Positions 5,169-32,826 of a DNA stretch of 32,826 nucleotides are shown here, piece by piece (position 1 is the stretch's first letter; each line of letters begins with the position of its first letter). The notes under the pieces are model-generated. The model saw nothing but the letters and a program-made list of their open reading frames with translations. It did not search any database and was not told where the DNA came from. The stretch comes from Clostridiales bacterium (GTDB lineage: Bacteria; Bacillota; Clostridia; Acetivibrionales; JBDMZA01), in contig JBDMZA010000014.1 in NCBI GenBank assembly GCA_039770155.1, positions 1 through 32,826 of the forward strand, read 5' to 3'. The position numbers and the translations under genes were made by a program.

Positions 5169-5210
5169 TTTAGAACAACTTAAAAAATAAAATCACATTC
5201 TTTCTTTATC
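5169..5210. repeat. Family-B-type half element abutting family A
   Basis: TTAGAACAACTTAAAAAATAAAATCACATTCTTTC resembles B left arms at 17891 (AAAAAATAAATTGTCATTCTTT) and 25261 (GAGAACCTAAAAAATAATATCACATT). Confidence 0.5.
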
Positions 5211-5316
5211 TTAGGCATAATCAAAAATTTCATAAGACAATTTTTTTCTGAAAATACCGATGGTTTAACGAATTTTCAAAAAAAGTTGACCAGTTTATTT
5301 TTTGATTCTGGCTTAA
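5211..5316 (+). repeat. Family A palindromic element, full length (reference copy)
   Basis: TTAGGCATAATCAAAAATTTCATAAGACAATTTTTTTCTGAAAATACCGATGGTTTAACGAATTTTCAAAAAAAGTTGACCAGTTTATTTTTTGATTCTGGCTTAA. It is near-identical to 19429-19533 and to the reverse complement of 1-98. Confidence 0.92.
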
Positions 5317-6787: not shown

Positions 6788-8039
6788 AGAAATAGTAGAA
6801 AGTTATAAATTAGCAAAATTGGCCTATTCCAAATACAATATTGATGTTGATAAAATATTGGATGAATTAAAAAAAATAAAAATCTCAATTCATTGTTGGC
6901 AAGGTGATGATGTAAAAGGATTTATAAATAAAAATAAAGATTTAACAGGTGGAATATCAGTCACAGGAAATTATCCTGGTGCTGCAAGAAATCCTGGCGA
7001 ACTTCGAAGTGATTTAAAAAAAGCAATGTCACTAATCCCTGGAAAACACAAAGTAAATCTACATTCTATATATACTGATACTGATGAGAAAATTGACATT
7101 GATGAAATCAAACCAAAGCATTATGAAAACTGGGTAAAATGGGCTAATGAAAATGATTTGGGTCTTGATTTTAATCCTACATGTTTTTCTCACCCAAAAT
7201 CAGATGATGGTTTTACCCTAAGTCATCCTGATAAGTCAATTAGAGATTTTTGGATAAATCATTGTAAGAAAGTCAGAAAAATAGGTGAATACTTCGGTAA
7301 AGAAACTGGTAAAACTTGTATTACAAATATTTGGATACCAGATGGTTTTAAAGATAATCCAATAGACAGACTCTCTCCAAGAGTACGATTAAAAAATTCT
7401 TTAGATGAAATATTTAAAGAAAAATTAAATGAAAAATTTACATTAGATGCAGTAGAAAGCAAATTATTCGGAATAGGCTCTGAAAGTTATGTTGTGGGAT
7501 CTCATGAATTTTATATGGGATATGGATTATCAAGAAATAAGTTAATTTGTTTAGATGCTGGGCATTTTCATCCTACTGAGTCAATATCTAATAAAATATC
7601 CTCTCTTGCTCTTTTTTCAAAAGGTATATTTCTTCATGTCAGCAGACCTGTTAGATGGGATAGCGATCATGTAATCATATTAGATGATGAATTAAATGAA
7701 ATTGCAAGAGAAATAATTGTAAACAACCTTGCAGATAAAACTTTTATAGGATTGGATTTTTTCGATGCAAGTATAAATAGAGTTGCAGCATGGGTAATAG
7801 GTACTAGAAATATGTTAAAAGCATTATTAAAAACAATGTTAGAGCCTAATGAATATTTAAAAGAAATTGAATTGAATAAAGATTATACAACAAGACTTGC
7901 CCTTAGAGAAGAATTCAAATCTTATCCTTTTGGTGCTATTTGGGATTATTATTGTTTAAGTCAAAATGTACCTATAAAAGAAACTTGGCTTTCTGATATT
8001 AAGGATTATGAAAAAAATATTTTATTGAAAAGAAATTAA
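6780..8039 (+). CDS. rhaA: L-rhamnose isomerase
   Basis: 419 aa with the [11 protein letters not shown] motif. GGAGG RBS. There is an 8-nt overlap with the rhaB stop (ATGAGTAA). Confidence 0.9.
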
Positions 8040-8083
8040 GCAGAATCAAAAAATTGTCTTATGAAATTTTTGATTCTGCCTTA
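8037..8083 (-). repeat. Family A element, 47-bp internally deleted form (type i)
   Basis: TAAGCAGAATCAAAAAATTGTCTTATGAAATTTTTGATTCTGCCTTA. Both A termini and the ATTGTCTTATGAAAT arm segment are retained. Its first three bases are the rhaA stop codon. Confidence 0.85.
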
Positions 8084-9393: not shown

Positions 9394-9993
9394 ATGATAG
9401 ATTTTAGTAAAGAATTTGCAAAATATGATTTTTTTCATATTTCAGAAAATATTGAACTTGATATTAATATTGATTCATTATCAAATATAAAGAAAAATAT
9501 TAAAAGAATTGGAAGAGAACAAAATAATGTTGTTATCCAAATAGATGATATACATGAGATATTAGATAAATTAAATGAATCAATTTTTAATCTAAATGAA
9601 ATAAATAAATTAAAAAAAGAATTTACAATAAAAGAAGCTTGTTTTTTTAATGAAAAAGAAGAAGTAATTAATAATCTTATAGAAGTTTTAGATGAAGTGG
9701 AAAATATAATACATTTTTCCAAATTACATTTAAATAATAGCTATAGTGAGCAATTAAATATTACATGGTCTCAAATAGGTAATATAATAAAAAAAATTGG
9801 TTTAACAAGACTAGATGATATAGATAATAAATTTAATGCTGAATTAAATGTTGCAACAAAAGTTTTAGTTATTGACAACAAAGATGATAATACAATTATT
9901 GAAACATTAAATTCAGGATATATATATGAAAAGAAAATCATAAGAAAATCTAAAGTCGTTGTTAATAAAACAAGGAGTGAAATAATTGAGTAA
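9394..9993 (+). CDS. GrpE-like nucleotide exchange factor (divergent paralogue)
   Basis: 199 aa with a coiled-coil N-half, VINNLIEVLDEVENII (compare the GrpE LLPVLDNLERAL motif) and a C-terminal beta-domain pattern (FNAELNVA ... ETLNSGYIYEKKIIRKSKVVVNK). GAGGAG RBS. It is translationally coupled to an Hsp70-type ORF. Confidence 0.5.
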   Translation: MIDFSKEFAKYDFFHISENIELDINIDSLSNIKKNIKRIGREQNNVVIQIDDIHEILDKLNESIFNLNEINKLKKEFTIKEACFFNEKEEVINNLIEVLDEVENIIHFSKLHLNNSYSEQLNITWSQIGNIIKKIGLTRLDDIDNKFNAELNVATKVLVIDNKDDNTIIETLNSGYIYEKKIIRKSKVVVNKTRSEIIE

Positions 9994-10087
9994 AGTAATT
10001 GGAATAGACTTAGGTACTTCGACATCAGAAGTCTCAGTATTAGAAAATGGTAAGCCTCGCTTAATTGAAAATAATTTAGGCAGTTAA
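9986..10087 (+). pseudogene. Hsp70/DnaK-family gene remnant (first 33 codons only)
   Basis: A TTG start lies 7 nt after AAGGAG. The translation is MSKVIGIDLGTSTSEVSVLENGKPRLIENNLGS followed by a stop. This is the phosphate-1 motif of Hsp70 ATPases, and the remaining ~550 codons are absent. Confidence 0.7.
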
Positions 10088-11161
10088 AGAATATGAAACT
10101 TTATGCAATAAGAATCCCCATAATTATAAATATTTATGTAAATTGGGATCAGCTTATTGTAAAAGAGGCTTTAGTATCAAATCAGAAAAGATACTTCTTG
10201 AATGTATAAAAATAGATAAATTAAATCCACAAGCATGGGATGAACTGGTTTTACTATACATTAAAACAAAAAAAAACAAAAAAAAGTTATACCTACTTTA
10301 GATAAATGCGTTGATATGTGTAATAAAAATCACTCTAGCTATAGTCAATTAATTACTAAATATTTAACATATGATTTTGAATCTAAAGATTATAAAAACA
10401 TATTAAAATCTCTTCAAAAAATCAAAAACTATTGTATTGATAATAATGAATGTAAAGTAACTGTATCACATATGCTTTTAGATTTCGCACTAGATTCATT
10501 ACTTCCTGAAATACATATTTATTCAAAGAAAATAATAGATCTTTCATTAGAATTAAATCCTAATGATGAATTAATAAAAGAATTTCACATTAAAATCACC
10601 GAAAAAATAAAACTCCTACCTCATTTAGAAAAAGCAAAATATGACCCAAATATGTCTCAAGATATATACGAATATATATTTCATAGTATATTTTCGGATA
10701 TTAATAGTCTAACTGATTATTTTAATACTATCAATATGATGCTCAAATATAAAATGCTTTTACATAAAATATATAATAACCTAAATAAATACAAAAAACA
10801 TGTAAAATACTTAAAAAGTCATTATTATATTTTGTATGAAGAATTTAAAGATTTTTTTGATTCAATCTTATCTAATAAATTTAAACTTAACAAAAAAGAT
10901 TTATTCTTTAATAGCTTAATGAATCTAGATTCTATTTTACATGAGGAAGATATTTACTCTGAAGATGATGATTATATAGAAGAAGATGTCTATGTAGAAG
11001 AAGATGTTTATGTAGAAGATAATCCTTTTTATGATTTTGATAGTTCATATGAAGAAACACATACATCTCAACCTATAACTGTTGAAAAAATAGGTAGAAA
11101 TGATGATTGTCCCTGTGGAAGTGGTAAAAAATACAAAAAATGTTGTTTAGGAAAAGATTAA
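10080..11161 (+). pseudogene. TPR / SEC-C-motif protein gene, 5'-truncated and frameshifted in an A9-C-A8 tract
   Basis: Frame 0 (10080-10298) encodes a TPR-like segment (YETLCNKNPHNYKYLCKLGSAYCKRGFSIKSEKILLECIKIDKLNPQAWDELVLLY) with no start codon. The reading continues in another frame from 10265 to 11161 and ends in the SEC-C motif [13 protein letters not shown]. The track ORF 10316-11161 is the distal part. Confidence 0.55.
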
Positions 11162-11170
11162 TTATTTGTA

Positions 11171-11319
11171 TAAGGCAGAATCAAAAATTGTCTAACTTAG
11201 GGATATCCAAAAAATAAACTCTAATTCTCGAGTATGAATTCGCGCGATTTAAGCGAACTTCAGACGAAAAGAATTCGGTATTATTTTTTAGGTTCTCCTT
11301 ATTTTTTTATTCTGCCTTA
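11171..11319 (-). repeat. Family A short (type i) element interrupted by a complete family B element
   Basis: The outer sequence TAAGGCAGAATCAAAAATTGTCTAACT ... ATTTTTTTATTCTGCCTTA matches the 47-bp form at 8037 and 23822. Confidence 0.85.
11199..11299 (+). repeat. Family B (B1) palindromic element, full length (reference copy), nested in family A
   Basis: AGGGATATCCAAAAAATAAACTCTAATTCTCGAGTATGAATTCGCGCGATTTAAGCGAACTTCAGACGAAAAGAATTCGGTATTATTTTTTAGGTTCTCCT. It is near-identical to 23719-23822 and 32728-32826 and is flanked by TTA on both sides. Confidence 0.92.
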
Positions 11320-11396
11320 TATGTTTCTTATTTTTAATACTATTTTAACATAATAATAAATCTTTTCTAATATTTATCAATTATAATTATTTCTAG

Positions 11397-11444
11397 TAAG
11401 GCATAATCAAAAAGTTGACTAGTTTATTTTTTGATTATGCCTAA
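11397..11444 (+). repeat. Family A element, 48-bp internally deleted form (type ii)
   Basis: TAAGGCATAATCAAAAAGTTGACTAGTTTATTTTTTGATTATGCCTAA. It has both A termini plus the right-arm segment GTTGACTAGTTTATT. Confidence 0.85.
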
Positions 11445-11482
11445 TATAAAAATAAAAGATAATTTAGGGGGGTAATTTTATA

Positions 11483-13072
11483 ATGTTTAATAAAAATATT
11501 TTAAAATATTTTTCATTTTTATTATGTCTTTTTTTAACATCATCAATAATTTTCATATTTAAGCCAACTAAATCTGAAGCTAACAAATCAGACACTAATT
11601 ATAAAAATTCCAATATTGAACTACAAATATTAGGAATAAATGATTTTCATGGTCAAATAAATACCACTAAAAAAATCAGTGGTATAGAAATGGGTAGAGC
11701 AGATTATTTAGCTGCTAATTTAGAAAAAAGAGTTAGTGAAAATAAGAATACTCTAATGGTTCATGCTGGAGATATAGTAGGAGCAAGTGCTCCTGTATCA
11801 GCTTTATTAAATGACAACCCCACTCTTGAAATACTAAGTGAAATTGGCTTTGATATAGGAACAGTAGGAAATCATGAGTTCGATAAAGGAACTGACGAAA
11901 TGTTGAAATTAACAAAAAATTCTTCTAGTTTTCCTTATACTGTATCTAATGTAGTTTATAAAAATACAAATAAAACAATACTATCACCATATATAATCAA
12001 AAGAGTTAAAGGAATTCCTATTGGTTTTATAGGTGTTGTTTTAAAAGATACTCCAAATATGGTAACAGCAGAAGGTATTTCTAATGTAAATTTCTTAGAT
12101 GAAATCGATTCAATTAATAAATACACTAAGAAACTTAAAAAACTTGGTGTTAAAACAATAGTAATTTTAGCCCATGTTCCTGGATATCAAAATAACACTA
12201 CAGGCGAAATAACAGGAGAAATTGCAGAAATTGCAAATTCGATAGATGATGAGGTTGATGTAATATTTGCAGGACATAATCATGATAAAATAAATGGTGA
12301 AGTCGATGGTAAACTAATTGTAGAAACATATTCTAATGGCACAGCATTTTCAGATGTTGATCTAAGTATCAACCCTCGTACAAATGATGTCGTATCAAAA
12401 AAAGCTGAAATCATAGATAATGTCCAAACTAATATAATTCCAGATGAAAAAATCACAAAAATGATTGAAAAATATGAAATTGAAGTTGGTCCCATTCTAA
12501 ATGAAGTAATTGGAACTGCTTCTATAGATATCACAACTAATCAAAATAGCAGTGGTGAATCAACATTGGGTAATTTTATTACCGATGCACAAAGAATTAG
12601 AATGGATACAGATTTTTCTTTTATGAACCCTGGTGGAATAAGAGCCAATATAGAAAAAGGTGAAGTAACCTGGGGTGAGTTATTTACAGTACAGCCCTTT
12701 AATAATTACTTAGTAAAAATGACTTTGACTGGAGAAGATATTAGAACTCTATTAAATCAACAATGGCAGGAAAAGCAAACACGAATGCTTCAAATATCAG
12801 GATTAAAATATACATGGGATTCTACAAAACCTAAAGGAGAAAAAGTAATTGATATTTTTACATATGATGGTGTAAAACTGGATTCTACAAAAGAATACAC
12901 AATTACTACCAATAGTTTTTTAGCAGGAGGTGGAGATGAATTTTCATTATTTACTCAAATTGATAATCATCAGATAGGTCCATTAGATATTGATGTACTG
13001 GTTGATTACATAAAAGATCTAGGAAATCCTTTTGAATCAAAAATAGATGGAAGAATTCTTAAAATAAATTAA
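11483..13072 (+). CDS. Secreted bifunctional metallophosphatase / 5'-nucleotidase (UshA-like)
   Basis: It has an N-terminal signal peptide, calcineurin-like motifs (GINDFHG, GDIVGAS, GNHEFD, GHNH) and a C-terminal 5'-nucleotidase domain. GGGGGG RBS. Confidence 0.85.
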   Translation: MFNKNILKYFSFLLCLFLTSSIIFIFKPTKSEANKSDTNYKNSNIELQILGINDFHGQINTTKKISGIEMGRADYLAANLEKRVSENKNTLMVHAGDIVGASAPVSALLNDNPTLEILSEIGFDIGTVGNHEFDKGTDEMLKLTKNSSSFPYTVSNVVYKNTNKTILSPYIIKRVKGIPIGFIGVVLKDTPNMVTAEGISNVNFLDEIDSINKYTKKLKKLGVKTIVILAHVPGYQNNTTGEITGEIAEIANSIDDEVDVIFAGHNHDKINGEVDGKLIVETYSNGTAFSDVDLSINPRTNDVVSKKAEIIDNVQTNIIPDEKITKMIEKYEIEVGPILNEVIGTASIDITTNQNSSGESTLGNFITDAQRIRMDTDFSFMNPGGIRANIEKGEVTWGELFTVQPFNNYLVKMTLTGEDIRTLLNQQWQEKQTRMLQISGLKYTWDSTKPKGEKVIDIFTYDGVKLDSTKEYTITTNSFLAGGGDEFSLFTQIDNHQIGPLDIDVLVDYIKDLGNPFESKIDGRILKIN

Positions 13073-13078
13073 AATATA

Positions 13079-13178
13079 ATACCATAAAAAATAAACTCTA
13101 ATTCTTTTCATATGAACTTCGCTTAAATCATGCGAATTCATACTCGAAAATTAGAGTTTATTTTTTGGCTATCCCTTA
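13079..13178 (-). repeat. Family B (B1) element, full length, arms symmetrised
   Basis: ACCATAAAAAATAAACTCTAATTCTTTTCATATGAACTTCGCTTAAATCATGCGAATTCATACTCGAAAATTAGAGTTTATTTTTTGGCTATCCCTTA. It overlaps the last codons and the stop of the DeoR gene. Confidence 0.9.
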
Positions 13179-13936
13179 GTAATTAAAATTTCTAAATCCC
13201 ATTCACTTACATCATCATTCCATGCTTTTGGTATATCAGTATCACTTATAATTTTATTAATTTTTGAAATATCTGTTGTATTAACATAACCCATTTTATC
13301 AAATTTAGTATGATCACATAAAAATATAACTTTTTCAGATCGTTCAATCATAAGTTTCCTTATTCCTGCTTCTTCTTCACTAGAATCTGTAAGACCTTTT
13401 TTTGGTGAAAATCCTTTGCATGAAAAAAACATTTTATTTGCATAGTAGCCTTTTAATGCATTTTCAGCCACTCGCCCCACAAAAGACAAACTTTTCGCTC
13501 TTAAAATTCCACCTGTTGATATAACTTTAATATTATTACAATCTGCAAGTTCAATTGCAATTCTTGCTGCATTTGTTATAACTGTCAGTCCTGTTTTATC
13601 TTTTAAATACTTTGTCATATATAGAGCTGATGTACTTGCATCTAAAATTATGATATCACCATCATTAACTAATTTAGCTGCATTTTTTGCTATTAAATTT
13701 TTACCATCAGAATTAATTCCTTCTCTTATTTTAATTGATATTTCTTCTTTTATATCGTCAGGAAGTACAGCTCCACCATGAGTTCTAATAAGATCACCTT
13801 GTTTTTCAAGAAATTTCAAGTCTCTTCTTATAGTCTCCTCTGTTACTTCAAACATTGTAGCTACTTCATTTACCAAAATACTTTTATTTTTATTTAATAT
13901 TGATAATATTTTAGTTCTTCTCTGTACTCCAAACAC
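13169..13936 (-). CDS. DeoR/GlpR-family transcriptional regulator
   Basis: 255 aa with an N-terminal HTH (VATMFEVTEETIRRDL) and a C-terminal DeoR sugar-phosphate sensor domain. GTG start. Confidence 0.85.
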   Translation of the reverse strand: MFGVQRRTKILSILNKNKSILVNEVATMFEVTEETIRRDLKFLEKQGDLIRTHGGAVLPDDIKEEISIKIREGINSDGKNLIAKNAAKLVNDGDIIILDASTSALYMTKYLKDKTGLTVITNAARIAIELADCNNIKVISTGGILRAKSLSFVGRVAENALKGYYANKMFFSCKGFSPKKGLTDSSEEEAGIRKLMIERSEKVIFLCDHTKFDKMGYVNTTDISKINKIISDTDIPKAWNDDVSEWDLEILITKG

Positions 13937-16447: not shown

Positions 16448-16476
16448 AATTACAACTCCTTATTAATTATAAAAAT

Positions 16477-16503
16477 TCGATATTATTTTTTATGTTTTCC
16501 TTA
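16477..16503 (+). repeat. Family B right-terminus remnant
   Basis: TCGATATTATTTTTTATGTTTTCCTTA resembles GGTATTATTTTTTAGGTTCTCCTTA. Its terminal TTA is the E3 stop codon. Confidence 0.5.
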
Positions 16504-17886
16504 AAATTCATGGATGGCTTCATGTAATATTTCTGAAACTGTGGGATGAGGAAAAACAATTTCCTTTATATCTTCAGTTCTTAACTCCATTTCAAGCATT
16601 AATCCTGCACCATATATCATTTCAGAAACATAACTTCCCATCATATGGACACCAATTAATTTATTATATTTTTTATCCACAATTAGTTTTGCAATTCCGT
16701 CTCTTTCTTCATTTTCAGCTATATATCTTCCACTATACATCATTGGAAGTGTAACTTTTTTATATTCTATACCTTTTTTAATTGCCTCATTTTCAGTTAA
16801 TCCAACTACTGCAATTTCAGGATTTCCATATATGACTGATGGAATATTTTCATATCTTACTAAATCTTTTTTACCTGATATATTATTTATACAAACTTCA
16901 GCTTCTCTATATGCAGTATGTGCAAGCATTGACTTTCCATTGACATCACCAATAGCATAAACTCTAGGAATATTTGTATTTAACCTATTATCTGTTTTTA
17001 TATAATTTTTTTCTACTTCAATATTTAAATTTTCAAGACCCAAGTCTTCTATATTTGGTTTTCTTCCTATACTGAGTAAAACTTTATCTGATTCCAACTC
17101 AAAAATTTCATTTTTATTTTCATATATTATAGAATTTGTATTTAGTTTTGTAACTTTTGATCCTAGTTTAAATTCTATTCCCTTTTTCTTATAACTTTTA
17201 AGTAAATTTTCTGAAATCTCGCTATCTAAGCTTCCTCCCACATTATCTAACATCTCAACTACCACAACTTTGCAACCAACAGTACTAAAATACGAAGCCA
17301 TTTCCAAACCAATAACTCCACCACCAATAATAGTAATACTTTTAGGAATATAGTCTAAATCTAATATTTCTTTATTTGTCATTACATATCCAGATTTCAA
17401 GCCTTCTTTTAATCCCTCAATTGGTGGAACTATAGGTATTGAACCTGTTGCAATTATAAGATAATTACATGTAAAAACTTTTTTATCTCCATTAGTAATA
17501 GCTTCTACTAAATATCCTTCTTTTTTATTTCCTGAGATTTTTCCATTAGCCTCTATTACATCAACATTATTGTTTTTAAGTTTACTTTTAACTCCCATGA
17601 CTAATCTTTTGACTACTTTGTTTTTTCTTTTCAAAACAATTTTTTGATCATATTTTACGTTATCAGTGTAGACACCATATTTATTTCCTTGCTTTATGTT
17701 TTCATAAATTTTAGCTGAATACAAAAAGGTTTTAGATGGTATACATCCTTCATTTAAGCATACTCCACCAATATTTGTTTTTTCTATTAATAATGTTTTA
17801 AGTCCCTTGCCACCACTTCTTTCAGCAGCTAAATAACCTCCAGGACCTCCTCCTATAACTATTACATCATATTTCACTCTATCCAT
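16501..17886 (-). CDS. lpdA: Dihydrolipoyl dehydrogenase (E3)
   Basis: 461 aa with the GGGPGGY FAD motif, the redox-active GGVCLNEGCIPSK motif and a C-terminal HPTVSE dimerisation motif. Confidence 0.92.
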   Translation of the reverse strand: MDRVKYDVIVIGGGPGGYLAAERSGGKGLKTLLIEKTNIGGVCLNEGCIPSKTFLYSAKIYENIKQGNKYGVYTDNVKYDQKIVLKRKNKVVKRLVMGVKSKLKNNNVDVIEANGKISGNKKEGYLVEAITNGDKKVFTCNYLIIATGSIPIVPPIEGLKEGLKSGYVMTNKEILDLDYIPKSITIIGGGVIGLEMASYFSTVGCKVVVVEMLDNVGGSLDSEISENLLKSYKKKGIEFKLGSKVTKLNTNSIIYENKNEIFELESDKVLLSIGRKPNIEDLGLENLNIEVEKNYIKTDNRLNTNIPRVYAIGDVNGKSMLAHTAYREAEVCINNISGKKDLVRYENIPSVIYGNPEIAVVGLTENEAIKKGIEYKKVTLPMMYSGRYIAENEERDGIAKLIVDKKYNKLIGVHMMGSYVSEMIYGAGLMLEMELRTEDIKEIVFPHPTVSEILHEAIHEF

Positions 17887-19428: not shown

Positions 19429-19533
19429 TTAGGTATAATCAAAAATTTTATAAGACAATTTTTTTCTGAAAATATCGATGGTTTAACAAATTTTCAAAAA
19501 AAGTTGACTAGTTTATTTTTTGATCCTGCCTTA
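19429..19533 (+). repeat. Family A element, full length, between lipA and E2
   Basis: It is near-identical to 5211-5316. Its terminal TTA (19531-19533) is the lipA stop codon. Confidence 0.92.
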
Positions 19534-20373
19534 TCCCTTATATTGATCTGCTAAATATGAACTTCTAGCAAAAGGTTCTGATATAACATATTTAAATCCT
19601 AATCCATAAGCAATTTCTTTATATTCATCAAATACATCAGGATGAACATATTCTCTTACAGGAAAATTACTCTTATTCGGTGCTAAATACTGTCCTATTG
19701 TCATAAAATCACATTTCATATTTGATATATCTTTTAAAACACCAATAATTTCTTTTTTTGTTTCACCAAGTCCCAACATAATTCCTGATTTAGTTTTTAC
19801 ATTTCTATTAAATTCCTTTGATTTTTTTAATATATTCAACGATTGTAAATAATTTGAATCTGGTCTGATTTTTTCATATAAAGAAGATACAGTTTCTATA
19901 TTATGAGCCAAAATATCAGGTTCTGCTTTTAAAACAATTTCTAATGATTCCATACTTCCTTTAAAGTCAGGAATTAAAACCTCAATTGTAATATTTTCAT
20001 CTTTTTTTCTAATCTCTTCAATAACTTTTTTAAAATGACCTGCGCCTCCATCGATTAAATCATCTCTAGTAACAGATGTTATTACAATATGTTTTAATCC
20101 TATTTCTTTTACTAAAGAGGCTAATCTATAAGGTTCATCTTTATCTATATTTTCCGGAGTATTATTATATACATTACAAAAAGTACAATTTCTGGTGCAA
20201 TTTTTACCCATAATAATAAATGCTGCTGTTTTTTTTCCATAGCACTTTGCCATATTTGGGCAAGCAGCTTCATTACAAACTGTATTTATACTGTATTCTT
20301 CTAAAACTCTAAATATATAATCTCTGTCATAATCTGATTCAACTCTAATTTTTAACCAGTCAGGTCTTTTCAT
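19531..20373 (-). CDS. lipA: Lipoyl synthase
   Basis: It has a radical-SAM CTRNCTFC motif plus the N-terminal auxiliary cluster motif CNEAACPNMAKC. 280 aa. Confidence 0.93.
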   Translation of the reverse strand: MKRPDWLKIRVESDYDRDYIFRVLEEYSINTVCNEAACPNMAKCYGKKTAAFIIMGKNCTRNCTFCNVYNNTPENIDKDEPYRLASLVKEIGLKHIVITSVTRDDLIDGGAGHFKKVIEEIRKKDENITIEVLIPDFKGSMESLEIVLKAEPDILAHNIETVSSLYEKIRPDSNYLQSLNILKKSKEFNRNVKTKSGIMLGLGETKKEIIGVLKDISNMKCDFMTIGQYLAPNKSNFPVREYVHPDVFDEYKEIAYGLGFKYVISEPFARSSYLADQYKG

Positions 20374-23718: not shown

Positions 23719-23822
23719 TTAAGTGATATCCAAAAAATAAACTCTAATTCTCGAGTATGAATTCACATGATTTAAGCGAACTTCAGACGAAAAGAATTTG
23801 GTATTATTTTTTAGGTTGTCCT
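23719..23822 (+). repeat. Family B (B1) element, full length
   Basis: It is near-identical to 11199-11299. Differences are concentrated in the apical loop (ACATGA versus GCGCGA). Confidence 0.92.
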
Positions 23823-23869
23823 AAGGCAGAATCAAAAAATTATCTTATGAAATTTTTGATTCTGACTAA
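23822..23869 (-). repeat. Family A short (type i) element abutting family B
   Basis: TAAGGCAGAATCAAAAAATTATCTTATGAAATTTTTGATTCTGACTAA. It shares its first bases with the end of the B copy. Its far terminus contains the SDR stop codon (CTA at 23866-23868). Confidence 0.85.
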
Positions 23870-24824: not shown

Positions 24825-24900
24825 TAAGACGGAATCAAAAAATAAACTAGTCAACACCTATTCATTTTCGAGAATGTGGATTTATTTTTTGGATATCCCA
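24825..24900 (-). repeat. Chimeric element: family A terminus and arm fused to a family B arm and terminus
   Basis: TAAGACGGAATCAAAAAATAAACTAGTCAAC is the A part. It is followed by ACCTATTCATTTTCGAGAATGTGGATTTATTTTTTGGATATCCC, which is a B1 arm and terminus. Confidence 0.8.
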
Positions 24901-25236: not shown

Positions 25237-25262
25237 TTAGGCATAATCAAAAATTCCATAAA
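25237..25262 (+). repeat. Family A left-end fragment truncated by a family B element
   Basis: TTAGGCATAATCAAAAATTCCATAAA matches the first 26 nt of family A. Confidence 0.7.
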
Positions 25263-25363
25263 GAGAACCTAAAAAATAATATCACATTTTTGAGAATAAA
25301 TTCCTATGTTTTAATCGAATTTCATACAGAGAGGATTTGATATTATTTTTCAGTTTCTTCTAA
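25261..25363. repeat. Family B variant (B2-type left arm) overlapping the 3' end of the OYE gene
   Basis: The left end is AAGAGAACCTAAAAAATAATATCACATTTTT. The right end GATATTATTTTTCAGTTTCTTCTAA matches GGTATTATTTTTTAGGTTCTCCTAA at 21 of 25 positions. Confidence 0.7.
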
Positions 25364-26655: not shown

Positions 26656-26834
26656 TATGGATAGCGCCTTATATATTCTATAAACAATCTCAATATTACA
26701 TATCAAAATAAAATTGTATTCTTTTAATTTTAAAAAAATTCCTATTTTATTTATAATGGGTTTTTCCAATGATTTCTTCGTAATTATAACCTAATTTAGT
26801 CAAAAAAAACAGATTTATTTCTTTAAATATTTGT

Positions 26835-26876
26835 CTTCAAAAAAAGTTGTCTAGTTTATTTTTTGATTCTGCCTTA
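26835..26876 (+). repeat. Family A right-half fragment
   Basis: CTTCAAAAAAAGTTGTCTAGTTTATTTTTTGATTCTGCCTTA. It ends immediately before the stop codon of the 26877-27950 gene. Confidence 0.8.
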
Positions 26877-27950
26877 TTACAATATATTTTTAATAATATT
26901 ACTAAAATTAATGAAGAGATTGTTTTTACCAATAAAAACAAAATTATTTCTATATTCAGGATATTGTTTTAAAATTTTATCAACTGAGATGCAAGGATCA
27001 TTAGTCTTTAAATTCAGAGATTTTTTTATTTGTTCATATGTTTCACATAATTTTTTATTTTTTTGCTGATGATATTTTTGGAATTTATAAGTTTTTGAAA
27101 TAGGTTGATTTTGATGTGGTTCATCAAAAGTAAATTTCAGATTATTTTTATTAAGATTTATATTTTTTGATGAGTATCCTATATTTTTTAAGACATCAAC
27201 TAAAGCATTACCAAAATTCATATTTTCAAAATTTATTTCTATATCCATTTTTAGTTGAGAAGGTTCAGAAAATTCACCAGGCTTGAAGGCTGTTAACCAC
27301 CAATGTCTACCTTCTCTAAACAAAATTTCTTTATTATTTTTTTTCAAAGAAAAAGACATTTTTAAATAAAACTCATCATTAACACAGTTATAAAAGTTAT
27401 AGCCATTAATTTTTTCATTTTTTTCATATATTCCTATTTCACAACCTGTAGATAAATCATATTGACCCTTCCATAATTCTATCATCCATTTTTTATTATT
27501 GTATTCAAAAAAAATTGGTTCGCAGTCTATTACCATACCCATGTGTATTGATAATTCATCATACAAATGACAATAACCCAATTTTTTTTGCCAAGGATCA
27601 ATACCAGAATAATATATATCTTGATTTTTATCATATATAAAACCAAAATTTTCGATAGTTTCTGAAAGCTCACAATTTTTCATATCTTTTATAACTTTTT
27701 TTTCATCTTTAGATAATGAATATCCAAAATTAGAAAATAATAAACATATTTTTTTCAAATCAGATAAATTCTGCATTTTATTAAAATCTAAATCTTGATT
27801 TTTTTGAAATTTTTTCAAAGCATTAAATGTTTTTTTTCCTAAAAACCCATCTGTTTTTCCACAATCAAATTTTAAATCATTAAGTTTTGATTGTAAGAAT
27901 TCAACATCTTTACTTAACATCGCTGTAAACTTTTCATTTTTAATATTCAC
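26877..27950 (-). CDS. Peptidoglycan-binding-domain protein with a DUF4474-like C-terminal domain
   Basis: The N-terminus has a PG_binding_1-like pattern (VEFLQSKLNDLKFDCGKTDGFLGKKTFNALKKFQ). The central part (DPWQKKLGYCHLYDE ... FFEYNNKKWMIELWKGQYDLSTGCEIGIY) matches my recollection of DUF4474. GTG start after GGGGAGG. Confidence 0.55.
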   Translation of the reverse strand: MNIKNEKFTAMLSKDVEFLQSKLNDLKFDCGKTDGFLGKKTFNALKKFQKNQDLDFNKMQNLSDLKKICLLFSNFGYSLSKDEKKVIKDMKNCELSETIENFGFIYDKNQDIYYSGIDPWQKKLGYCHLYDELSIHMGMVIDCEPIFFEYNNKKWMIELWKGQYDLSTGCEIGIYEKNEKINGYNFYNCVNDEFYLKMSFSLKKNNKEILFREGRHWWLTAFKPGEFSEPSQLKMDIEINFENMNFGNALVDVLKNIGYSSKNINLNKNNLKFTFDEPHQNQPISKTYKFQKYHQQKNKKLCETYEQIKKSLNLKTNDPCISVDKILKQYPEYRNNFVFIGKNNLFINFSNIIKNIL

Positions 27951-28193: not shown

Positions 28194-28266
28194 TAAGGAT
28201 AGGCTGAAAATTAAGTTTCACAAATTCACACTCGAAAATTAAGGTTTATTTCTTGATTATGCCTAA
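28194..28266. repeat. Chimeric element: degenerate B1 body ending in a family A terminus
   Basis: TAAGGATAGGCTGAAAATTAAG ... AAATTCACACTCGAAAATTAAGGTTTATTTCTTGATTATGCCTAA. The right arm is collinear with 13131-13168, but the last ~12 nt are the A terminus. Confidence 0.75.
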
Positions 28267-29331: not shown

Positions 29332-29378
29332 GTGATCCTAGGATTTTGAAAATGTGATATTATTTTTTGGCTTTTCTA
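29332..29378. repeat. Family B short form (B2 subfamily)
   Basis: The reverse complement GAAAAGCCAAAAAATAATATCACATTTTCAAAATCCTAGGATCAC parallels 21033-21070. Its end contains the GNAT stop codon (CTA at 29376-29378). Confidence 0.6.
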
Positions 29379-30263
29379 TATATGAAAATTGTATGGAAAC
29401 ATAAATCTATAATCAAAATTAGTTCCATTTGTTTTTATATGAAAGTCATAATCACCATCTGTATAGAGTTCGCTTTCAATATCTACTTCCCCAAAATTTG
29501 GTGTAAATAAAAAATTGATACGATTTATATCATCTGAAACAATATTCTCCAGAATAATTCTAATATCAGTATTAATATCTGAAAAGACATTATATATATC
29601 AATTTCATCTTCATTTTTTTTACATATCAACACTAAATTAAAATCTTTAAAATAGTAAATATCTTCACTAAATAAGTTCATTAGATGCCAAGCCAAAATG
29701 TTATTTGAATTATATACCTTAAATTTTTCAGATAAAAGTTTATTATTTTTTGATAATCTTAAAGCTAAATCTAAATCATCTTTATTATCTATATTAATTT
29801 TTCTGGACTCTATGTTGTTCCTAGATTTAAAATTGTTTTTTGTATAAAATTTATACTCATTTATTATTCTAAATCCAAATTTATTATAGAAAGTTTTAAC
29901 ATCTTTATTCCCAAATAAAAATATTAAATCACTTTTCCCACTGTATTCATCCAATACATTTTTTATTAGTTTTGAAGCAAAACCTTTGTTTCTATATTCT
30001 GGAGATGTCATTACAGTTCCTATTTGAATTGAATTTATATTTTTATTATTTGAATTTATACTTTGTTTAGTAATAGAAACATTTGAAATAATATTTTCAT
30101 TTTCAAAAATAGAATAACACACATATCTATCATCCCAAAACCCGGCTTGATACCATTTTTCAAAATCTATTCCAAAAACTTTATTTGCCAGATTGTTAAA
30201 ACTTCTCCTATACTCATAATTTTCTTTATAATCATAAATCAATTCACAATTCATTAAATTCAT
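29376..30263 (-). CDS. GNAT-family N-acetyltransferase with an extra C-terminal domain
   Basis: 295 aa with acetyl-CoA binding motif A (IQIGTVMTSPEYRNKGFASKLIKNV). AAGGAG RBS. Confidence 0.7.
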   Translation of the reverse strand: MNLMNCELIYDYKENYEYRRSFNNLANKVFGIDFEKWYQAGFWDDRYVCYSIFENENIISNVSITKQSINSNNKNINSIQIGTVMTSPEYRNKGFASKLIKNVLDEYSGKSDLIFLFGNKDVKTFYNKFGFRIINEYKFYTKNNFKSRNNIESRKINIDNKDDLDLALRLSKNNKLLSEKFKVYNSNNILAWHLMNLFSEDIYYFKDFNLVLICKKNEDEIDIYNVFSDINTDIRIILENIVSDDINRINFLFTPNFGEVDIESELYTDGDYDFHIKTNGTNFDYRFMFPYNFHI

Positions 30264-32634: not shown

Positions 32635-32709
32635 TCAGACATAATCAAAAATTTCACAAAATAGTTTTTTTCTAAAACTATCAATTCTTTACAGCAATTT
32701 GATCCTTTA
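32635..32709 (+). repeat. Family A element, degenerate copy
   Basis: TCAGACATAATCAAAAATTTCACAAAATAGTTTTTTTCT follows the A left arm. The right end AATTTGATCCTTTA resembles TTTTGATCCTGCCTTA. Confidence 0.65.
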
Positions 32710-32727
32710 TTTTTAATTATAACAAAC

Positions 32728-32826
32728 TAAGGGATATCCAAAAAATAAACTCTAATTCTCGAGTATGAATTCACATGGTTTAAGTGAACTTCAGACGAAA
32801 AGAATTCGGTATTATTTTTTAGGTTC
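32728..32826 (+). repeat. Family B (B1) element, full length, truncated by the window edge
   Basis: It is near-identical to 11199-11299 and 23719-23822. Confidence 0.92.

Follow-up and report, generated by a model that had tools for sequence, protein, structure and literature searches.

A Nested Insertion of One Miniature Transposon in the Hairpin Loop of Another in a Metagenomic Contig

Introduction

The insertion sequences IS1397 and ISKpn1 enter the loops of REP (palindromic unit) sequences in enterobacteria with a duplication of 3–4 bp; both are autonomous IS3-family elements with TG...CA ends and a strict specificity for REP. Correia and Stowaway-like elements duplicate the dinucleotide TA, and so does the IS630-Spn1 family. 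The ends of the pneumococcal RUP repeats resemble those of IS630-Spn1 (PMC3049150). A 3-bp duplication of TWA is the hallmark of the PIF/Harbinger transposons and the Tourist MITEs (PMC4482050, PMC2213677, PMC4561436), which are relatives of the bacterial IS5 family (PMC4482050, PMC2213677, PMC12730594). For MITEs, the paralogous empty site is a routine, standard form of proof (PMC4482050). A recent review of MITEs in prokaryotes contains no mention of nesting or of TTA/TAA.

Here, we analyze two families of short repeats, designated A and B, in a window of 32,826 nt. The window is an entire metagenomic contig with a G+C content of about 26% and housekeeping genes, and both of its ends lie inside repeats. 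We focus on positions 11171–11319, where a B element lies within the loop of an A element, and compare this locus with the other copies in the window, with related elements in the Clostridia and with the known systems.

Results

A B1 Element between the Arms of a Short A Element

Direct reading of the sequence gives the order TAA, GGCAGAATCAAAAATTGTCTAAC, TTA, B1, TTA, TTTTTTTATTCTGCC, TTA at 11171–11319. This composite of 149 nt follows the stop codon of gene 10316..11161 by 10 nt and precedes a 5'-nucleotidase gene by 164 nt; it consists of the following parts:

11171..11173, no strand: TAA, left flank of the outer A element, presumed to be an old target-site duplication and now unlike the right flank TTA
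11174..11196, plus strand: interrupted short A element, left arm with the adjoining loop portion, GGCAGAATCAAAAATTGTCTAAC (19/19 A-arm match; alignments)
11197..11199, no strand: TTA, left copy of the duplication, representing the triplet originally targeted in the A loop (intact A elements have one TTA here)
11200..11298, plus strand: B1, 99 nt, noncoding, GGGATATCC...GGTTCTCC (copies, identity, hairpin fold)
11299..11301, no strand: TTA, right copy of the target-site duplication (sequence; empty-site alignment)
11302..11316, plus strand: interrupted A element, right arm with the adjoining loop portion, TTTTTTTATTCTGCC (arm match, alignments)
11317..11319, no strand: TTA, right flank of the outer A element (sequence)

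Compared with the arms of the A hairpin, the outer pieces agree at 19/19 and 16/17 positions, and the B1 insert has imperfect terminal inverted repeats of about 30 nt (GGGATATCCAAAAAATAAAC... / ...GTATTATTTTTTAGGTTCTCC). It is 93.9% identical to the copy at 23723–23821 and 94.8% identical to the one at 32731–32826 (BLAST E of about 1e-40), and 85% identical to a minus-strand copy at 13079–13175. Private variants distinguish it from its relatives, such as GCGCG at 11243–11247, where two other close copies have ACATG. A terminator scan revealed no terminator-type signal at the composite; a terminator role is therefore unsupported.

The initial annotation had described this locus as a B1 copy inserted in the loop of a short A element and bracketed by TTA at 11197–11199 and 11299–11301. 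The sequence confirms both triplets, and the insertion is borne out by the identity of B1, the arm matches and the reconstructed empty site described below. Its span for B1, 11199–11299, was right as to a full copy but not as to the limits, which are 11200 and 11298 with the TTA triplets outside.

Two Families of Short Repeats with a Common Terminus

The window contains at least 22 copies or fragments of A and B in its 32.8 kb. Sizes of the elements range from 47 to 123 nt; together they account for 6.0% of the contig and are present in 18 of the 23 intergenic regions. Their DNA fold z-scores lie between −2.7 and −7.0, with terminal inverted repeats at both ends, and all six frames of B1 and of A hold stops or only short open stretches. 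The copies used for comparison with the nested locus are as follows:

11397..11444, plus strand: short A, A2 subtype, with TAA/TAA flanks and one loop TTA; a paralogous empty site (alignment, fold)
26830..26876, plus strand: short A, A2 subtype, with decayed left arm; its loop GTCTAGT-TTA-TTTTTTGATT is closest to the interrupted copy (alignments)
8036..8083, plus strand: short A, A1 subtype, flanked by TTA on both sides; shares positions 8037–8039 with the stop codon of rhaA (alignment)
5211..5315, plus strand: long A (about 105 nt) with TTA/TTA flanks; its right end has the A2 loop and terminus sequence (alignments)
19429..19533, plus strand: long A flanked by TTA on both sides, the right-hand one forming the stop codon of the minus-strand gene 19531..20373 (alignments)
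23720..23869, plus strand: TAA, B1 (23723–23821), TAA, short A1 (23825–23866), TAA, with one TAA shared (sequence, fold)
32728..32826, plus strand: B1 with left flank TAA, cut by the contig end (terminus mapping, alignment)
13076..13178, minus strand: B1 in opposite orientation with its far end decayed (terminus mapping, alignment)

Relative to long A, subtype A1 comprises roughly the first 36 and last 12 nt, and A2 roughly the first 17 and last 31 nt. Judging from these alignments, the short subtypes (8036–8083 and 11397–11444) look like internal deletion derivatives of the 105-nt long form (5211–5315, 19429–19533, and 1–97). The deletions that gave the short forms appear to fall between short runs of T or A. 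The outer element at 11171–11319 had been equated with the 47-bp form at 8037 and 23822; it is indeed a short A of 47 nt but of a different subtype, as its loop is closest to A2 (11397–11444 and 26830–26876) and to the right end of long A.

Both families have the same terminus of about 20 nt, GG[CG]A[TG]A[AT][TC]CAAAAAATAAAC, and two elements (24828–24899 and 28197–28263) are hybrids in which one A-type and one B-type terminus face each other. Based on these common termini and hybrids, one transposase probably moves both A and B. The two families were probably active over overlapping periods. Orphan half-elements are found at 5172–5205, 16469–16506, 25240–25258, and 29344–29383.

A and B elements are neighbors at several places. 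Of the four B1 copies in the window, three are found inside an A element or at most 7 nt from one; the copy at 32731 begins 7 nt past a decayed long A (32635–32723). The succession TAA-B1-TAA-A1-TAA at 23720–23869 is what insertion of one element into the flanking duplication of its neighbor would produce. At 25237–25363, a 19-nt A-type left end (25240–25258) is followed by TAA, a complete 99-nt B-type element (25262–25360) and TAA, and the right half of the A element is missing; this may be a second nested insertion with a subsequent deletion.

The Empty Site and Its Rival Explanations

Joining the outer arms through one TTA, without B1, yields a 47-nt hairpin, TAAGGCAGAATCAAAAATTGTCTAACTTATTTTTTTATTCTGCCTTA, which has the same length as an intact short A and is 76–84% identical to the intact short A copies. 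As single-stranded DNA this reconstructed empty site folds into one hairpin of −11.9 kcal/mol (z = −7.0), and the intact copies fold alike. The alignment shows that five uninterrupted A sequences, namely the A2 copies at 11397–11444 and 26830–26876 and the right ends of three long A elements, contain only one TTA at the homologous position of the loop, which in the composite is occupied by TTA-B1-TTA; the uninterrupted loops all read ...GTTGACTAG-T-TTA-TTTTTTGATT.... A complete B1 thus entered the loop of a resident short A and duplicated the resident TTA, a reading to which we assign a probability of roughly 85%. As a textbook example of a paralogous empty site, the locus is proof of past mobility in family B, and it sets the length of the target-site duplication (TTA/TAA) at 3 bp with no need of a second strain. 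The order of events proposed in the initial annotation, with A present first, holds for this locus but not as a statement on the age of family A overall.

Three other origins of the composite were weighed against this insertion. The ends of A and B have ∼20 nt in common, the hybrids and half-elements demonstrate that rearrangement between repeats does happen in this window, and recombination, gene conversion or template-switching during replication between A and B termini could be invoked in place of transposition. Recombination through the common termini is, however, expected to produce hybrids with one A end and one B end, and not a complete B within an A loop; the breakpoints are in the A loop, a part of A that does not resemble B, and the precise duplication of a resident TTA is predicted by staggered-cut transposition but not by recombination. 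We consider this origin very unlikely.

Of comparably low probability is a third family, with the A-B-A composite as the repeat unit and movement by way of the outer A ends. These outer termini are nearly intact and flanked by T-W-A, so that the composite could in principle be mobilized as a unit, and A and B adjoin at several loci. Both junction 24-mers, however, occur only once in the window with up to three mismatches allowed, the other A/B neighbors differ in geometry (B and A abutting at 23720, or 7 nt apart at 32723/32731), and the outer flanks of the composite are unequal (TAA/TTA). The recurrence of the composite had been named as an observation that would speak for a third family; none was found in the window, and the collections scanned contained no copy of A or B except for a chance match (L006). 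A composite that moved at a later time would still have originated by nested insertion.

An assembly chimera is rated lower still. The suspicion arises from the nature of the data, a metagenomic contig assembled from short reads across repeats, with repeats at both ends, and from the Logan contigs of SRR25010665, which break inside the repeats. The left junction is nevertheless also found in an independent Logan contig (L003, SRR25010665), which then stops inside B, and the private variants (GCGCG) are specific to this copy of B1. Moreover, the composite is about as long as one read, de Bruijn assemblers are unable to invent junction k-mers, and the reconstructed empty site is too good for an accident. 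Nested insertion remains the preferred reading, and as such the locus gives clean evidence of past transposition, but of an event that is ordinary for miniature transposons.

Three-Base-Pair Duplications of TTA and TAA

To define the element limits, termini were mapped by a position weight matrix, which yielded 35 hits on both strands compared with about 0.8 per strand in shuffled sequence; inward-facing termini were paired into elements, and the B-type ones were checked in the alignment. Identical direct 3-nt flanks were observed in 11 of the 16 paired A- or B-type elements in the window (P = 0.009 in a permutation in which the right flanks were shuffled among elements), whereas the flanks are inverted in 3 of 16. 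The matching triplets are TTA/TTA, TAA/TAA, and in one case TAT/TAT. Without the nested locus and one doubtful hybrid, the flanks match in 10 of 13 elements (P = 0.003). Overall, 27 of the 32 flanks in the window are TTA or TAA, as are all eight flanks of the Clostridia relatives described below, in what is a small sample of one 32.8-kb contig and four foreign copies. The five elements (5/16) that break the duplication rule presumably do so through decay.

The middle base of the flanking triplet varies among copies of one family and agrees on both sides of any one copy. This pattern of variation between copies and match within a copy indicates a 3-bp duplication; by the same pattern, the triplet is neither part of the inverted repeat nor a duplication of TA only. 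Two candidate interpretations were accordingly rejected: flanking triplets as part of the inverted repeat, given that they are inverted in no more than 3 of 16 pairs, and a 2-bp TA duplication of the IS630/Tc1-mariner type, which would require every copy to be preceded by TAA and followed by TTA. This last arrangement is seen in 1 of 16 pairs, namely the outer A element of the nested locus.

The middle base also bears on the possibility that A and B are REP/REPIN-like or IS200/IS605-type elements mobilized in single-stranded form by a Y1 (HUH) transposase, with the TTA as the remnant of a recognition tetranucleotide. Consistent with this possibility are the strong hairpin folds of all elements, their location between genes at very high density (6% of the window and 18 of 23 intergenic regions), and one insertion in a hairpin loop, a target resembling single-stranded DNA. 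Y1 elements make no duplications, however, and a triplet whose middle base changes between copies and matches within a copy (P = 0.003–0.009) is a duplication. In addition, the long terminal inverted repeats reach the very ends of the elements, in place of asymmetric subterminal hairpins, and no RAYT, TnpA or Y1 gene was found among the 20 window proteins scanned. We therefore consider such an origin highly improbable, on a par with the assembly chimera. A and B are MITEs with a 3-bp T-W-A target-site duplication. The earlier claim that family B has been mobile and inserts at TTA/TAA-type sites is supported by the matched flanks and the empty sites, the tabulation of flanks for a TTA-type duplication having given 11 of 16 in the window (P = 0.009) and TTA/TTA in four of four Clostridia relatives.

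Neighboring Genes and the Host

Stop codons of six genes coincide with, overlap, or abut the end of an element or its TTA/TAA flank (at 8037–8039, 13169–13171, 19531–19533, 23866–23868, 25343–25345, and 26874–26879). Genes that end at or within elements are explained by a T-W-A target that includes the stop codon TAA, and the arrangement fits TAA stop codons serving as insertion targets, with the duplication preserving the stop. The stop codon of rhaA is made by a G-to-A change in the element end at 8039, and the final two codons of the DeoR-type gene 13169..13936, together with its stop codon, come from the B1 at 13076..13178. The last five codons and the stop (25343–25345) of a flavin oxidoreductase gene lie inside the B-type element at 25262–25360.

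Between the composite and the A2 hairpin, a promoter-like site, TTAACA-17-TAATAT, is found at 11345–11373 (a consensus match only). If this promoter is real, the 5' leader of the nucleotidase gene would include the A2 hairpin at 11397–11444, which ends 38 nt upstream of the start codon. Upstream of the composite, at 9992–11161, grpE is followed by a stub of 31 codons resembling the N-terminus of Hsp70/DnaK (KVIGIDLGTSTSEV...) and then a stop. Downstream of the stub are a TPR-like frame (in another frame), an A9-C-A9 stretch near 10270–10290, and an ORF with a SEC-C motif at 10316..11161. In the place normally taken by dnaK, the region 9992–11161 has the appearance of a decayed or frameshifted gene.

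The host appears to represent a deep lineage with very little sampling. Among 5.8 billion proteins, none is more than 55% identical to its HisRS, with the next matches at 45–49% spread over several candidate phyla, and the nearest nucleotidase is 63% identical. The contigs that encode these nearest relatives (63% nucleotidase, 55% HisRS) have no A or B termini, and identical proteins were found only in short contigs of SRR25010665, which end inside repeats. A search for the orthologous region with the flanking nucleotidase returned only relatives of 38–41% identity and no orthologous empty site, as is explained by the sparse sampling of the host lineage. The elements also break short-read assemblies: both ends of the contig, and all Logan contigs, stop inside them.

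Related Elements in the Clostridia

Exact and degenerate scans for A and B found nothing real in 185,579 species genomes, the JGI metagenomes, and IMG/VR, the matches amounting to one hairpin (L006) in a genome of 63% G+C and one viral match, both by chance. Searches of plasmids by BlastN with the elements gave chance matches or none, and a protein-space search with the open frames of the repeats (gene calls through other copies) found nothing. Rfam had no match in the window at the gathering score; the sole match, in 11000–11600, is due to chance (E = 0.65).

Scanning with the common terminus alone revealed relatives in the Clostridia:

L016:6213–6369 and L018:3072–3228, Tepidibacter sp. McLGI.53: 157-nt elements, two complete copies; a third copy, cut, at L029:1–37
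L026:∼7235–7391, Oceanirhabdus seepicola ZWT: 157-nt element, complete
L017:∼2640–2800, Clostridium sp. UBA6640: element with a different core, complete
L027:1020, Clostridium magnum: related MITE-like element

Their terminus, GGCATATTCAAAAAATAAACTAGTCA, and the right end of the long A in the window agree over about 26 nt; the terminus of these relatives is also written GGCATATTCAAAAAATAAAC(TAGTCA). All four complete copies are intergenic and have direct TTA/TTA flanks. The 157-nt elements share their terminus and TTA flanks with A and B but differ in internal sequence and in length. The copies of Tepidibacter and Oceanirhabdus are about 90% identical, although their hosts belong to different genera, and this similarity hints at horizontal spread. 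The hosts of these relatives are cultured or binned, whereas the window encodes the HisRS with no more than 55% identity to any protein in the collections. Neither a transposase nor a full-length element with these ends was found near the Clostridia relatives in loci of 8 kb, and the literature searched contained no description of the 157-nt elements.

Discussion

The structure of the locus can be accounted for if A and B are nonautonomous MITEs moved in trans by a transposase encoded elsewhere in the genome. The enzyme would cut its target with a stagger of 3 nt, preferring T-W-A (TTA or TAA), and repair of the stagger would duplicate the triplet on either side of the insert. At 11171–11319, a short A2-type hairpin was resident first, 10 nt downstream of the stop codon of gene 10316..11161; B1 then entered the TTA in the A loop to give A-left, TTA, B1, TTA, A-right. 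We infer a cut-and-paste or copy-in reaction by a DDE-type transposase acting in trans. Scanning of the 20 proteins in the window revealed no transposase, and the window contains no full-length element with these ends.

The TWA duplication and the GG...CC ends point, by analogy, to a transposase of the PIF/Harbinger-IS5 type, an assignment that we make tentatively and at somewhat below even odds. Enzymes of the IS30 and IS3 types likewise make 3-bp duplications and could also be responsible. Bacterial IS5 elements are reported to prefer ANT over TWA (PMC4482050), and the assignment is weak for this reason. The terminus GGCATAATCAAAAAATAAAC combined with TWA provides a handle in searches for the autonomous element, the ends sought for this partner being GGCATAATCAAAAAAT.../TWA.

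A broader proposal, which we regard as possible but rather unlikely, is that A and B form an undescribed superfamily of bacterial MITEs together with their relatives in Tepidibacter, Oceanirhabdus, and Clostridium. Such a superfamily would have its own transposase with strict T-W-A specificity, a prokaryotic counterpart of Tourist/PIF-Harbinger; the enzyme may preferentially target the loops and flanking triplets of its own resident copies, and the elements would have spread between distant lineages. In the host of the window, an apparently deep-branching uncultured bacterium, the elements fill about 40% of the intergenic DNA.

Families A and B appear to be new, as no description of them was found in the literature and databases; the kind of element and the nested insertion are already known. 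Several features of A and B are shared with the pneumococcal BOX, RUP, and SPRITE elements, which are small hairpin repeats crowding the intergenic regions of a low-GC bacterium. BOX is modular, none of the three has sequence similarity to A or B, and the duplication made by A and B is 3 bp. The Correia elements of Neisseria and other IS630/Tc1-mariner MITEs are, like A and B, high-copy intergenic elements, of 100–150 bp; terminal inverted repeats of about 26 nt and cotranscription with genes are also listed as shared (PMC3049150). A and B differ from these in that the variable middle base of the triplet is duplicated as well, which a 2-bp TA model does not fit.

By analogy, we infer that the closest counterparts of A and B are the Tourist/PIF-Harbinger elements. 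Tourist-like MITEs (e.g., mPing) have the same 3-bp T-W-A duplication, GG...CC ends, and sizes of about 50–160 bp, and also resemble A and B in their AT-rich targets, in subfamilies with common termini and in frequent nesting (PMC4482050, PMC2213677, PMC4561436). Tourist elements are nevertheless eukaryotic and moved by PIF/Harbinger transposases, and A and B have no sequence similarity to them. The nested locus itself is most reminiscent of IS1397 and ISKpn1 in the entry into the loop of a palindrome; here, however, the insert is a MITE, and the elements have entered other target contexts besides the loop. Eukaryotic MITEs with TWA duplications are classical, and A and B add one MITE family to this well-known class.
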